DNA of 64,000 nucleotides. Origin: Escherichia phage F2. Positions 2,936 through 56,085 of the stretch are shown in pieces; the stretch's first letter is position 1; the number at the start of each line of letters is the position of its first letter. Made by a program: the position numbers and the translations under genes. The DNA is taken from the sequence record NC_054913.1; one strand, written 5' to 3'. Under the pieces are notes generated by a model. It made no database searches, had not been told where the DNA came from, and worked only from the letters and a program-made list of their open reading frames with translations.

Positions 2936-3229
2936 ATGAAATCTATGCTTCGCTTTAATGGTCAAGAACTAGTAGTTGAAGATGTTATCCCAGCGGATGA
3001 TGCTTTTAACGAAGCTGTGATTGACGAATTGAATCGAGTATTCCCAGGTGCATTCCATATTGCTATGGAACCTCTTAAAAACTTTCGTGACCCTGAACAC
3101 ACTGATCAAATTTTTGTCGGTGTAGTGACGGGTCATTTAGAAACAGAGGTACCAATGGTCGTATTAGTTAAATACTCTAAAGATGATACTCCATTCCGAG
3201 CACCAGCATTCCTTTCATTCCGTAAATAA
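2936..3229 (+). CDS. alt.-1-like hypothetical protein, 97 aa
   Basis: ATG at 2936 with GAGGA RBS; downstream of alt as in T4. Confidence 0.6.
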   Translation: MKSMLRFNGQELVVEDVIPADDAFNEAVIDELNRVFPGAFHIAMEPLKNFRDPEHTDQIFVGVVTGHLETEVPMVVLVKYSKDDTPFRAPAFLSFRK

Positions 3230-54429: not shown

Positions 54430-54504
54430 GGCCCTGTAGCTCAATGGGAGAGCTGTCAGCTCATAACTGATAGGTAGCTGGATCGAAACCAGCCAGGGCC
54501 ACCA
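54430..54504 (+). tRNA. tRNA with CAU anticodon (Met, or Ile if lysidine-modified), CCA encoded
   Basis: Manual cloverleaf: 7-bp acceptor GGCCCTG/CAGGGCC, D stem GCTC/GAGC, anticodon loop CTCATAA, T arm GCTGG-ATCGAAA-CCAGC, ACCA 3' end. Confidence 0.8.
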
Positions 54505-54510
54505 AACAAA

Positions 54511-54582
54511 TGGTGCATCGTATAAAGGTTATTACGGGGAGCTGTTAACTCCTTTATCTTGGTTCGAGTCCAAGTGCGCCAG
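54511..54582 (+). tRNA. tRNA-Asn (GUU)
   Basis: Manual cloverleaf: acceptor TGGTGCA/TGCGCCA with one G-U pair, anticodon stem GGGAG/CTCCT, loop CTGTTAA, T arm CTTGG-TTCGAGT-CCAAG; no CCA encoded. Confidence 0.7.
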
Positions 54583-54627
54583 TAATTTAAACGAAGTAAA
54601 TTAAGTGCTCTATCCAAATAATAAATA

Positions 54628-54646
54628 CTCCTATATTTTATAGGAG
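54628..54646 (+). promoter_or_regulatory. hairpin that sequesters the Shine-Dalgarno sequence of the downstream endonuclease gene
   Basis: ctcctat-atttt-ataggag; the 3' arm contains AGGAG 10 nt upstream of the ATG at 54657. Confidence 0.5.
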
Positions 54647-54656
54647 ATAATTGGTA

Positions 54657-55322
54657 ATGAGCATTTGTAAACATTGTAATATGGAATTTGATATTTCTAA
54701 TAAACCTAAAGGATGGATGGCTAACCACACTAGATGGTGTAAATCCAACCCTAAATTGGAATTGTATAAAGAAAGTTCTAAATCAGCCATTGCAGCAATG
54801 AATAAAGCACGTATAGCTTCAGGTAATTTAAACCAGTATGTTGTATCTAAAAAGACTGGTGTCCCTGTAGTAATTTCGGAAGAGACTAGACAAAAATTGT
54901 CAGCCGCTTCATTAGGTAGAGAACACTCTGAGGAATCTAGAATAAAAATATCTAATGCTCGGAAAAAATGGTTGAATGAAAACCCTGATAAACATCCTTG
55001 GAAGAAAAATACAAAATTTAAATCTGTGCCTTGTGAATTTTTGAAATCTAAATTAATAGAAAACGGAATTTCATTTATTGAAGAATACCAACCGGTTAAA
55101 AACCGAGCGTATTGCACGGATATTGCTTTAATAGATAAAAAGATTATTATTGAAGTTAATGGAAACCAACATTACTCCAATCCTAAGAAAAAGATTTTGG
55201 CCCCTTATTATAAAGAACGCCATGATATTATAAAATCATTAGGATGGGAAATATATGAACTTCATTATGCTGAAGTTTATAAAGAAGATATTGTAAATAA
55301 TTTAATTGCCTCTATAGTGTAA
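54657..55322 (+). CDS. free-standing endonuclease, non-GIY-YIG: N-terminal Cys/His cluster, NUMOD3-like repeats, C-terminal PD-(D/E)xK-like (Vsr/DUF559-type) domain; 221 aa
   Basis: CKHC...HTRWC; repeats SEETRQKLSAASLG and SEESRIKISNARKKW; C-terminal IIIEVNGNQH...KERHDIIKSLGWEIYEL; lies between tRNA-Asn and tRNA-Arg, last 5 codons overlap tRNA-Arg. Confidence 0.6.
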   Translation: MSICKHCNMEFDISNKPKGWMANHTRWCKSNPKLELYKESSKSAIAAMNKARIASGNLNQYVVSKKTGVPVVISEETRQKLSAASLGREHSEESRIKISNARKKWLNENPDKHPWKKNTKFKSVPCEFLKSKLIENGISFIEEYQPVKNRAYCTDIALIDKKIIIEVNGNQHYSNPKKKILAPYYKERHDIIKSLGWEIYELHYAEVYKEDIVNNLIASIV

Positions 55323-55383
55323 TGGATAGCATATAATCGTTCTAAGGTTAATGGTGAGAGTTCAAATCTTTCTAGAGGCACCA
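55308..55383 (+). tRNA. tRNA-Arg (UCU), CCA encoded
   Basis: Manual cloverleaf: acceptor GCCTCTA/TAGAGGC, anticodon loop GTTCTAA, T arm GAGAG-TTCAAAT-CTTTC, ACCA 3' end; T4 also encodes tRNA-Arg(UCU). Confidence 0.75.
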
Positions 55384-55401
55384 ACTTTAAGTGAGGAAAA
55401 T

Positions 55402-55746
55402 ATGAAAGGCAATATTTATCTGGTAGTTCATGATTTAACGTTTTATTTTAACGAACATGATACAGTTATTTCAGACCGATTGATTAATTTGTTATACCAA
55501 CATGCAGATTACATCTATGTTCAAAATGAATTCGGACATTGGAAGTTCATTAAAAATCGTTCTGGGTTAACTAGTTTTGAATACTTTGACCGTAAAGACC
55601 TTTTAAACGAAATCCCATTGCAACATCGGTTCCAGAAACGCGAATCATTATATTATTGCCGCCATATACCAAACGCAGAATGCGTTAATGAAGCGATTAA
55701 TCTATGGCGTCAGCGTCGAGAGCAAATTGATGATATGTCAAAATAA
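55402..55746 (+). CDS. hypothetical protein, 114 aa
   Basis: ATG at 55402 with GAGGA RBS; the ORF track extends into the tRNA. Confidence 0.5.
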   Translation: MKGNIYLVVHDLTFYFNEHDTVISDRLINLLYQHADYIYVQNEFGHWKFIKNRSGLTSFEYFDRKDLLNEIPLQHRFQKRESLYYCRHIPNAECVNEAINLWRQRREQIDDMSK

Positions 55747-56057
55747 GAAGCCGGGTCGCTACCGGCAAGTCGTCGGACTGATGTTCCCTGCGTAAGGACT
55801 GGTCTTAATAAATCTTTACGATTTGTTAATATCCCCTTACATCACAGCAGAAACGGCGCACCGAATTATCGATTCGAGGAAATATCTTTGCCGTAAGCCG
55901 AGTAGCGTTTTTGACGGAACGTTCGGATATGGTCGAGATATGGCCTTTTAAAAATATTGAGTAGCGTCAACTACTTAATAACCGGGTTCGAATCCCGGCG
56001 TTTCGTACAAACACTTGCCTTAGCAGGTGGAACCCCTACAAGGTTGCCGCAAGGCTT
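55747..56057 (+). ncRNA. putative small stable RNA locus (T4 rnaC/rnaD-like), boundaries not resolved
   Basis: About 310 nt with no credible ORF, downstream of tRNA-Arg; T-arm-like CCGGG-TTCGAAT-CCCGG at 55982-55998; several short hairpins; ends at a strong terminator. Confidence 0.4.
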
Positions 56058-56059
56058 AG

Positions 56060-56085
56060 CCCCGACCGAAAGGTCGGGGTTTTTT
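56060..56085 (+). terminator. rho-independent terminator (GNRA loop) ending the tRNA/stable-RNA transcription unit
   Basis: ccccgacc-gaaa-ggtcgggg followed by tttttt. Confidence 0.8.

Follow-up and report, generated by a model that had tools for sequence, protein, structure and literature searches.

A Vsr-like and probably homing endonuclease gene overlapping a tRNA-Arg gene in the tRNA cluster of a Mosigvirus coliphage

What kind of gene has settled between the tRNA genes of a T-even-type coliphage, running into one of them, in the slot where phage T4 carries segB? The question is raised by Escherichia phage F2 (sequence record NC_054913.1), a coliphage of the genus Mosigvirus (RB69-like). 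A 64,000-nucleotide (nt) stretch of its sequence (the window, whose positions are used below unless a locus number is given) holds an open reading frame (ORF) of 221 amino acids (aa) between a tRNA-Asn and a tRNA-Arg gene, in a 2.4-kilobase (kb) region 95–98% identical to Escherichia phages AV111, WFL6982, HY126 and Mizar. A preliminary description, made from the sequence alone, had proposed that one family of homing endonucleases was replaced here by another. We consider it likely that the ORF encodes a free-standing Vsr-like homing endonuclease that cuts alleles lacking the endonuclease, in or close to their resident tRNA-Arg gene, is copied together with its own tRNA-Arg allele (tRNA-Arg') and is expressed late and sparingly.

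The ORF lies on the plus strand (54657–55322; ATG start at 54657, TAA at 55320–55322; 221 aa plus stop) and is intact; an in-frame TTG at 54651 was rejected as the start, since homologues all begin MSICKHC at the ATG. ARAGORN placed tRNA genes on both sides, as had been described: on the same strand, tRNA-Met(CAT) (54430–54504; Rfam 62.4 bits), which forms the left edge of the region common to endonuclease-free relatives, and tRNA-Asn'(GTT) (54511–54582; 53.6 bits) lie upstream, and tRNA-Arg'(TCT) (55308–55383; 56.3 bits) lies downstream, the Rfam gathering score being 29 bits. All three are intact and intron-free by ARAGORN and Rfam, which rules out an intron-encoded endonuclease at this locus. 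The 3' end of the gene is shared with tRNA-Arg' over 15 nt (55308–55322, plus strand): base 55308 is both base 1 of tRNA-Arg' and the first base of codon A218, codons A218-S-I-V plus TAA make up tRNA-Arg positions 1–15, and the stop falls within the D-loop motif GTGTAATGG. The last five codons had been said to overlap the tRNA, which holds only if the stop is counted; four sense codons do. Given this overlap, RNase P cleavage at the 5' end of tRNA-Arg would, by established tRNA processing, remove the stop codon from the message. By its substitution pattern the gene evolves under purifying selection, with ratios of nonsynonymous to synonymous rates (dN/dS) of 0.06–0.24 in the ORF frame between diverged copies (rough values, as dS is above 1 and saturated). 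Two minus-strand ORFs (54638–55117 and 54456–54728) are also open; they were set aside, given the strong purifying selection on the plus frame and, for one of the two, its overlap with tRNA genes.

The architecture of the encoded protein largely agrees with what had been read from its sequence, namely a Cys/His N-terminus, two NUMOD3-like repeats and a C-terminal nuclease domain. Residues C4, C7, H24 and C28 (54666–54740, plus strand) form a C2HC zinc finger, presumably a DNA-binding module, which AlphaFold2 models as beta-beta-alpha with a predicted local distance difference test score (pLDDT) of about 96; the CxxC...HxxxC pattern is common to the closer half of the family, other members having helix-turn-helix (HTH) modules at either end instead, and Pfam zf-C2H2 matches 2 of 40 family members. 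The repeats SEETRQKLSAASLG and SEESRIKISNARKK follow at aa 74–104 (54876–54968, plus strand), matched by Pfam NUMOD3 in two stretches at 18.9 bits, below the 20.4-bit cutoff; NUMOD3 also matches 7 of the 40 members. Residues 124–216 (55026–55304, plus strand) make up the nuclease domain, with E127, D155, E166, N168 and H172; Pfam DUF559 (PF04480) scores 21.4 bits over aa 151–210, above its gathering score of 20.6, and is found in 14 of the 40 members (E ≤ 0.01), and there is a weak match to MTES_1575. PHROGs returned one unnamed family and weak 'homing endonuclease' families, NCBIfam no match at all, and Pfam GIY-YIG no match even at E ≤ 10, in line with the earlier view that the protein is not of the GIY-YIG type.

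A search of 5.8 billion proteins yielded 131 homologues, nearly all metagenomic, and an exhaustive profile search gave 1,971 clusters (50% identity) at E ≤ 1e-3 and 547 at E ≤ 1e-30. The strongly conserved core of the family alignment spans about residues 88–210 and runs from the NUMOD3-like H(S/T)xExK through NPDKHPWK, KFKSVPCE and D155 to E166-V-N168-G-N-Q-H172-Y and Y184-Y185-x-x-R188, with D155, E166, N168 and H172 invariant. A model built from this alignment (AlphaFold2, mean pLDDT 89) had I-Bth0305I, a proven homing endonuclease, as the best structural match of its nuclease domain, which also matched RAP domains. The profile search that had been suggested for the C-terminal part, together with fold comparison, did find a nuclease fold, and in the model the domain is of the Vsr/DUF559 type. 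The motif EVNG was considered as a decayed EVDG active site and the idea rejected: no member of the family alignment departs from the Asn, which aligns with N208 of I-Bth0305I, an active enzyme.

I-Bth0305I, from Bacillus phage 0305phi8-36 (PDB 3R3P), is the prototype of the EDxHD (Vsr-like) homing endonucleases, with an active site including D196, E206, N208 and H213 and with Asn in place of Vsr His64 (PMC3239194). We took its sequence from the phage genome record. BLASTP aligned only a single 11-residue block (IDKKIIIEVNG / LGKKLAIEVNG), and a family hidden Markov model (HMM) trimmed to the nuclease core matched residues 168–255 of I-Bth0305I with 15.5 bits (E = 1e-6, as a single comparison), pairing D155 with D196, E166 with E206, N168 with N208 and, with a one-residue shift, H172 with H213; E127 probably pairs with E170. 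A Vsr sequence gave no significant score in the same test. The window protein and I-Bth0305I share the order of a DNA-binding front end followed by a C-terminal Vsr-like nuclease, the core motif KK(I/L)xIEVNG with its Asn for Vsr His64, and a DUF559 match above threshold: Pfam finds DUF559 (29.7 bits) and MTES_1575 (24.1 bits) in I-Bth0305I itself, the same two families as in the window protein. They differ in setting and in front end, I-Bth0305I being described in that source as lying in a group I intron of a recombinase gene and as having NUMOD2-like HTH repeats (PMC3239194), whereas the window gene is free-standing between tRNA genes and has a zinc finger and NUMOD3-like repeats. When the whole family alignment was compared with I-Bth0305I by hhalign, only an HTH module of some members aligned. 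This 'GVSDxAIxxW' module, a further likeness, occurs as 'GVSDNAIRKWI' in C-terminal extensions of alignment members P0029, P0032, P0036, P0058 and P0063, and hhalign pairs it with the 'GVSDVAIQRWRK' region of I-Bth0305I (residues 117–158) at a probability of only 18%; if real, the match hints at DNA-binding modules common to the family and I-Bth0305I.

Two other endonucleases invite comparison. I-Ssp6803I is a homing endonuclease of the canonical PD-(D/E)xK type, with a catalytic Lys, in a cyanobacterial tRNA-fMet intron; like the window protein it is a homing enzyme of the restriction-endonuclease superfamily tied to a tRNA gene, and it differs in being intron-encoded, the tRNA genes beside the window ORF being intact and intron-free. 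It was absent from the top structural matches of the modelled nuclease domain. No sequence like Hef, an endonuclease of T4-related phages, was reached from the window protein by tblastn at E ≤ 1e-3 among 50,697 phage records. In its original description hef reportedly replaces mobC or mobE among the nrd genes and does not lie in the tRNA cluster. Hef resembles the F2 protein as a free-standing endonuclease of T-even-type phages assigned to the Vsr-like family (PMC3239194).

A different function was also considered, that of a Vsr-type mismatch-repair nuclease or of a general phage DNA repair or recombination nuclease, and the automatic name given to many homologues by the Joint Genome Institute (JGI) is indeed 'very-short-patch-repair endonuclease'. 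Pfam Vsr does not match the window protein, however, nor does any NCBIfam model; the presence of sequence-specific binding modules, the dispensable and sporadic occurrence of the gene and its hairpin-masked expression, as in selfish endonucleases, leave this explanation with hardly any credit.

If the protein is a homing endonuclease, its gene should betray mobility, and the comparison of the tRNA cluster with insert-free relatives, as had been recommended, bears directly on this point: most relatives have an empty site, so the gene is not a conserved resident. By tblastn (E ≤ 1e-3) the gene was found in 37 of the 50,697 phage records, 10 of them E. coli phage records, while the empty Met-Arg-ORF150c site was present in about 110–120 related records (a figure derived from 121 records that may include some carriers, split matches being joined). 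Alignment with RB69, MM02, PhAPEC2 and VIPECOMC06 delimits a cassette of tRNA-Asn', spacer, endonuclease gene and tRNA-Arg' (54505–55379, plus strand) that takes the place of the 77-nt tRNA-Arg of RB69 type carried by empty-site phages: MM02 and PhAPEC2 are identical to the window as far as the tRNA-Met 3' end, where the identity stops, and the right-hand end of the heterology is sharp, at the tRNA-Arg 3' end. Both tRNA-Asn' and tRNA-Arg' differ as alleles from those of PhAPEC2, RB69 and MM02, tRNA-Arg' aligning poorly with the RB69/MM02 type and being found by blastn only in the 10 phage records that carry the ORF; Salmonella phages STP4-a and SEA1 match the tRNA-Asn' stretch at 100% identity. 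Since both flanking tRNAs are unlike those of empty-site relatives, a simple insertion between two resident tRNAs is ruled out and the event is best described as replacement of a cassette, at about 54505–55379.

Between tRNA-Met and the RB69ORF150c homologue at least six states were found among relatives. Besides Met-Arg only (RB69, MM02 and the other empty-site records) and Met-Asn-Arg (PhAPEC2, ST2), these are Met-Asn'-ORF-Arg', which the window shares with seven or eight phages nearly identical to it; Met-ORF-Arg' in the Gaprivervirus PSD2001 (83% aa identity) and in DCP548 (79%); Met followed by a SegB orthologue, with no detectable tRNA-Arg, in Mosigvirus vB_VIPECOMC06 (locus L005, 1244–1912); and deletion derivatives in G2285 and AV115. 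The cassette is 99.2–100% identical among the window, ELT1 and Mizar, and its neighbours are far less so (ORF151c 82.6% and 89.0%, ORF150c 77.7% and 91.7% identity to ELT1 and Mizar, respectively), with ELT1 carrying a T4-like Gln-Leu-Gly-Pro-Ser-Thr tRNA array upstream. Judged from sequence, such a contrast between cassette and flanks marks a recent lateral spread in which the flanks were co-converted. In DCP548 (L010, about 2152–2230) the tRNA-Arg is chimeric, its 5' two-thirds being of the cassette type and its T-arm and 3' acceptor strand of the RB69 type; the acceptor stem is unpaired and ARAGORN no longer calls the gene, which looks like a recombination junction, or crossover, inside the tRNA-Arg gene.

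Decay and loss have left traces as well. The PTE-Eco05 copy (L014, 1201–1867) has a 1-nt insertion at nt 192 that splits the frame, and its record annotates only the C-terminal 161 aa. In G2285 (L099, 1307–1460) a clean deletion of 1,074 base pairs (bp), equivalent to window 54646–55719, has removed the endonuclease coding sequence, tRNA-Arg' and most of ORF150c, and tRNA-Asn' and the 5' untranslated region of the gene (box and hairpin, to ...TATAGGA) are retained and joined to the end of ORF150c. In AV115 (L100, 1307–1458) tRNA-Asn' is kept from its 5' end to its T-loop (window 54571) and there runs into the tRNA-like 3' end of the rnaC homologue (window 55985 onwards), a deletion between two T-loop-like motifs whose product is annotated as tRNA-Asn in the record. 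Sporadic presence, a pattern of flank co-conversion and products of decay and loss, the operational marks of a free-standing homing gene, were all found at this site.

How closely does the locus match that of segB? T4 has the order tRNA-Ile, segB (221 aa), a 5-nt gap, tRNA-Arg, rnaD and rnaC, with segB directly 5' of tRNA-Arg; the window has tRNA-Asn', the ORF (also 221 aa), the overlapping tRNA-Arg', ORF150c and homologues of rnaD and rnaC, and its tRNA-Arg' shares the D-arm and anticodon arm with T4 tRNA-Arg. The proposal that one endonuclease family replaced another at the same locus gains from the SegB orthologue of vB_VIPECOMC06, which lies in the same gap (75% identical to T4 SegB; Pfam GIY-YIG 29.0 bits), and needs amending in that whole cassettes were exchanged rather than a gene simply inserted. 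The two endonucleases are alike in several further respects: a place in the tRNA cluster downstream of tRNA.2 and tRNA.3, a hairpin masking the Shine-Dalgarno (SD) sequence or AUG together with a near-consensus late-promoter box, and a gene 3' end abutting a tRNA, so that tRNA maturation would cut the message, as proposed for segB. Association with tRNA genes is likewise family-wide in both (for SegB, PMC13096335). They are unlike in fold, GIY-YIG and Vsr-like being unrelated; in the overlap, segB stopping 5 nt short of the tRNA and the window ORF overlapping it by 15 nt; in target, the T-psi-C motif of many tRNA genes being a proven cut site for SegB (PMC2330249, PMC13096335) and the tRNA-Arg gene a proposed one for the window protein; and in neighbours, no favoured isotype being reported for SegB (PMC13096335), whereas the family of the window protein is biased to tRNA-Arg. 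The leaders are similar too (CATAAATACTCTTAGAAATAGGAGATATTTATG for T4 segB, AATAAATACTCCTATATTTTATAGGAGATAATTGGTAATG for the window ORF), and this likeness could reflect either shared descent of an expression module or convergence on promoter, anti-SD and SD; T4 segB (L012) and window 54619–54659 have in common the pattern …ATAAATACTC(T/C)TA…ATAGGAGATA…ATG. Further downstream, window 55747–56036, continuing to a terminator-like hairpin at 56058–56081, is closely homologous to rnaD and rnaC, stable RNAs of T4 (species 2 and 1); this non-coding stretch matched no Rfam family and is 94–98% conserved among relatives, above the neighbouring ORFs.

The leader itself contains a nested RNA fold that hides the start of the gene (54602–54667, plus strand; RNAfold), as had been anticipated from an AGGAG in the 3' arm of a 7-bp hairpin. 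The arms read off directly are CTCCTAT (54628–54634) and ATAGGAG (54640–54646); RNAfold extends them to 8 bp with a 3-nt loop (54628–54646, plus strand; 5' arm 54628–54635, loop 54636–54638, 3' arm 54639–54646, SD sequence AGGAG at 54642–54646). Around this hairpin lie a 4-bp stem (54614–54617/54651–54654) and an outer 9-bp stem (54602–54610/54659–54667) that pairs the G of the AUG and codons 2–4. The minimum free energy is −19.9 kcal/mol compared with −9.8 ± 2.5 for 200 shuffles (z = −4.0; 0 of 200 equally stable). A conserved upstream element, GTGCTCTATCC, resembles the reverse complement of the RB69-type tRNA-Arg D-arm; we set that resemblance aside because the element pairs with codons 2–4 in the outer stem. 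SD- or AUG-masking structures occur at nine other loci (L006–L010, L016, L017, L024 and L030), L024 being near-identical to the Acinetobacter phage locus L008. Folding and comparison together support the proposed translational masking as real at the window ORF and conserved, with different sequences, in homologous loci.

Directly 5' of the inner hairpin's 5' arm lies a late-promoter-like box, AATAAATA (54620–54627, plus strand), with 7 of 8 matches to TATAAATA. At seven homologous loci a perfect TATAAATA stands directly 5' of, or overlaps, the 5' arm of an SD- or AUG-hiding hairpin whose stem sequences differ: those of a Klebsiella phage (L006), a Providencia phage (L007), an Acinetobacter phage (L008), PSD2001 (L009) and DCP548 (L010), and the metagenomic contigs L016 and L017. 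A scan of the window found no perfect TATAAATA near the ORF, and 22 copies in the whole 64 kb (8.3 ± 3 expected), most of them on the minus strand at 4.9–47 kb, an enrichment consistent with T4-type late promoters; a sigma-70 promoter scan was uninformative (6 sites, 9.5 expected). The leader anatomy of the window ORF and the seven loci is that of T4 I-TevI, -II and -III, in which the ribosome-binding site lies hidden in a hairpin of early transcripts, and a late promoter gives transcripts without the 5' arm (PMC2988022), so that early read-through transcripts are folded and silent and those starting late, inside the 5' arm, are translatable (PMC2988022, PMC2330249). The three T4 genes differ in lying in introns, and the box of the window phage differs in its one mismatch.

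The function of the imperfect AATAAATA in the window phage is uncertain, and it raises the improbable alternative of a decaying relic, a former homing gene now silent or inactive and kept only because its loss would harm the tRNA-Arg' that it overlaps. AATAAATA stands in all copies with 98% or more identity to the window, where diverged copies have TATAAATA, the PTE-Eco05 copy is frameshifted, loss of the gene in G2285 took tRNA-Arg' and ORF150c along, and dN/dS within the young clade is 0.36–0.73, a value resting on a handful of changes. The window ORF is nonetheless intact and keeps every family-invariant residue, and the cassette is 99–100% identical across backbones that differ by 8–22%, implying recent spread. 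An imperfect box is also no bar to mobility in the case of T4 segB, whose own box, CATAAATA, is similarly imperfect, yet which homes efficiently (PMC2330249) and for which a late promoter is still predicted (PMC2988022).

Residence in tRNA clusters extends across the family. Among GenBank phages and ten metagenomic contexts obtained by exact-protein look-up, nearly all copies are flanked by tRNAs, several of them right beside tRNA-Arg(UCU): upstream of it in E. coli and Klebsiella phages and L025, and 18–70 nt downstream of it in Providencia and Rhizobium phages and in L017 and L019. In a blind survey of 66 IMG/VR loci, which include some near-duplicates and whose ORF limits were set automatically, a tRNA lay within 1.5 kb in 63 (within 300 nt of the ORF in 50, within 100 nt in 44), the nearest upstream tRNA was a same-strand tRNA-Arg(UCU) in 17 of 36 cases, and tRNA-Arg of any anticodon was the nearest neighbour in 32 of 66, compared with 19% of the tRNAs there (binomial p = 6e-8). 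The 15-nt overlap of ORF and tRNA recurs in a Klebsiella phage (L006), PSD2001 (L009), an IMG/VR locus (L056) and L018; overlaps of 10–38 nt occur in L064, L077, L086, L091 and L097, and exact abutment in L025. Two distant relatives share only the zinc-finger/NUMOD3 front end and have a nuclease of the T7-endonuclease-I type. In Citrobacter phage CkP1 (L030) the ORF (1498–2133; Phage_endo_I 27.1 bits, cutoff 29.1; SD-masking hairpin present) lies inside a tRNA-Met-like gene split at the anticodon loop (1419–1452 and about 2121–2170), with no group I intron by Rfam and an insert that is almost wholly ORF; in Vibrio phage Kuja (L031) the ORF (1369–2166) overlaps tRNA-Met (2157–2233) by 10 nt, with a tRNA-Arg about 500 nt upstream. 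Both cases suggest that it is the front end that seeks out tRNAs.

Unusual tRNAs accompany some family members. Amber-suppressor-like tRNAs with a CTA anticodon (ARAGORN 'Pyl') occur in clusters bearing the family (L018 3113–3187, L073 2776–2851, L090 1563–1638, L024 561–635 and L097), two of them overlapped by the 3' end of the endonuclease ORF (in L097 by 23 nt). In L023 the ORF overlaps by 26 nt a weak tRNA-like element (3144–3218; Rfam 35.7 bits, no ARAGORN call), its stop codon falling in an anticodon loop of the Arg-UCU type (CTTCTAA); the region of the D-arm appears rearranged.

Constant proximity to tRNA genes would also be explained if the product acted on RNA, as a RAP/FASTK-like protein of Vsr fold that binds or cuts the polycistronic tRNA precursor or a host tRNA. 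RAP is a domain known from RNA-binding proteins; no other Pfam model matches as many family members (35 of 40, E ≤ 0.01), and in the window protein it falls just short (PF08373, 23.9 bits, gathering score 24.2). Yet the front-end modules (NUMOD3-like repeats, zinc finger, HTH in relatives) are those usual in homing endonucleases that bind DNA, a DNA endonuclease is the best structural match, and sporadic presence, empty sites, pseudogenes and deletions are unexpected for a tRNA-maturation factor. SegB, an unrelated DNA homing endonuclease, has the same association with tRNAs (PMC13096335), and we regard an RNA-acting function as very improbable.

The homing endonuclease that we favour would work as follows. 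In a mixed infection the enzyme would cut the endonuclease-free tRNA region of a related phage, most likely in or beside the resident tRNA-Arg(UCU) gene, and recombinational repair would copy the gene and the tRNA-Arg' allele, often with tRNA-Asn', into the broken genome. The tRNA-Arg' allele is presumed resistant to cutting, and with the ORF stop fused to it gene and tRNA would move as one unit. Sequence would be read by the C2HC finger and the two NUMOD3-like repeats, and cleavage performed by the Vsr-like, metal-dependent nuclease domain, a kind proven in I-Bth0305I. On the T4 paradigm, the nested hairpin would hide both start codon and ribosome-binding site on early and middle read-through transcripts of the tRNA precursor, and translation would be open only to a late transcript that the (T/A)ATAAATA box initiates within the 5' arm. 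Maturation of tRNA-Arg by RNase P would sever the mRNA at a point four codons short of the stop, one transcript then yielding either the tRNA or the full message, not both. That the homing target is the tRNA-Arg gene we rate at somewhat under an even chance, because the ORF is strictly linked to tRNA-Arg', DCP548 shows a crossover within its tRNA-Arg, heterology breaks off sharply on the right at the 3' end of the tRNA, and the family is biased to tRNA-Arg.

Several observations weigh against the homing reading. Similarity to a proven enzyme is weak, the one-to-one HMM comparison reaching just 15.5 bits; searches across PDB sequences (phmmer with the single protein, hmmsearch with the full-alignment profile) gave only chance matches, so that the kinship with I-Bth0305I is too faint for database-wide detection and, like that with Vsr, surfaced only through fold comparison. 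D222 of I-Bth0305I, the last Asp and fifth residue of EDxHD, has no clear conserved counterpart: an invariant Tyr aligns at its position, and D190 of the window protein is not invariant. The strongest Pfam signal across the family is RAP. The late-promoter box has its first-position mismatch in the window and in all copies at least 98% identical to it, one of which is frameshifted, and the window clade could be sliding towards inactivity. The near-duplicates and automatic ORF limits of the IMG/VR survey belong on the same side.

SegB has recently been shown to shuffle, replace and possibly amplify tRNA genes in escape from tRNA-cleaving host defences (PMC13096335). A wider proposal, which we put forward tentatively and think more doubtful than the tRNA-Arg target, is that the whole family (about 550 strong and about 2,000 total clusters at 50% identity) forms a second lineage, independent of the first, of homing endonucleases that target tRNA genes, with tRNA-Arg(UCU) as the main site and each member with its own fused, cut-resistant tRNA allele; such elements would shuffle, replace and possibly amplify phage tRNA genes, with the zinc-finger/NUMOD3 front end reading them.

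Much of this has precedent: homing endonucleases of the Vsr-like (EDxHD) kind (PMC2677866, PMC3239194), endonuclease genes standing free in the tRNA clusters of T4 (PMC2330249, PMC13096335) and hairpin-plus-late-promoter control (PMC2988022) were already known, and the present case adds no new principle, being a convergent second family in SegB's niche. Searches of the full-text literature (subscription-only papers being outside their coverage) did not find the clade and its architecture, its tRNA-cluster residence with tRNA-Arg bias or the ORF–tRNA fusion described, and tRNA-cluster residence of this family appears to be unreported. GenBank has the protein as 'hypothetical protein', with NUMOD3 and DUF559 matches mentioned in the Mizar record. 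Annotation is inconsistent across PP889504.1, PQ885451.1, OR352941.1, PP658200.1 and OK254198.1, with 'HNH endonuclease' in two records; in AV111, HY126 and PSD2001 the gene is unannotated, a probable consequence of its overlap with a tRNA.

The tRNA clusters of phages vary greatly, and SegB was until now, to our knowledge, alone among endonuclease families in being known to inhabit and reshape them. A structurally unrelated Vsr-like family seems to do the same, in the same slot, and its habits of predicted late, masked expression and of an ORF running into the next tRNA are kept across phages of Enterobacteria, Acinetobacter and Rhizobium and many uncultured viruses. Recent work has connected phage tRNAs themselves with the evasion of bacterial defences that cleave tRNAs (PMC13096335). 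If the target is a tRNA gene, homing would explain the alternative tRNA-Arg and tRNA-Asn alleles, the chimeric tRNAs and the T-loop deletions seen at this site; the small EDxHD class, in which I-Bth0305I is an enzyme with activity and structure data, would gain putative members with a different DNA-binding module, and a gene now unannotated, 'hypothetical' or mislabelled 'HNH endonuclease' would have a name. Together, these results offer a concrete and testable explanation for the plasticity of phage tRNA clusters.

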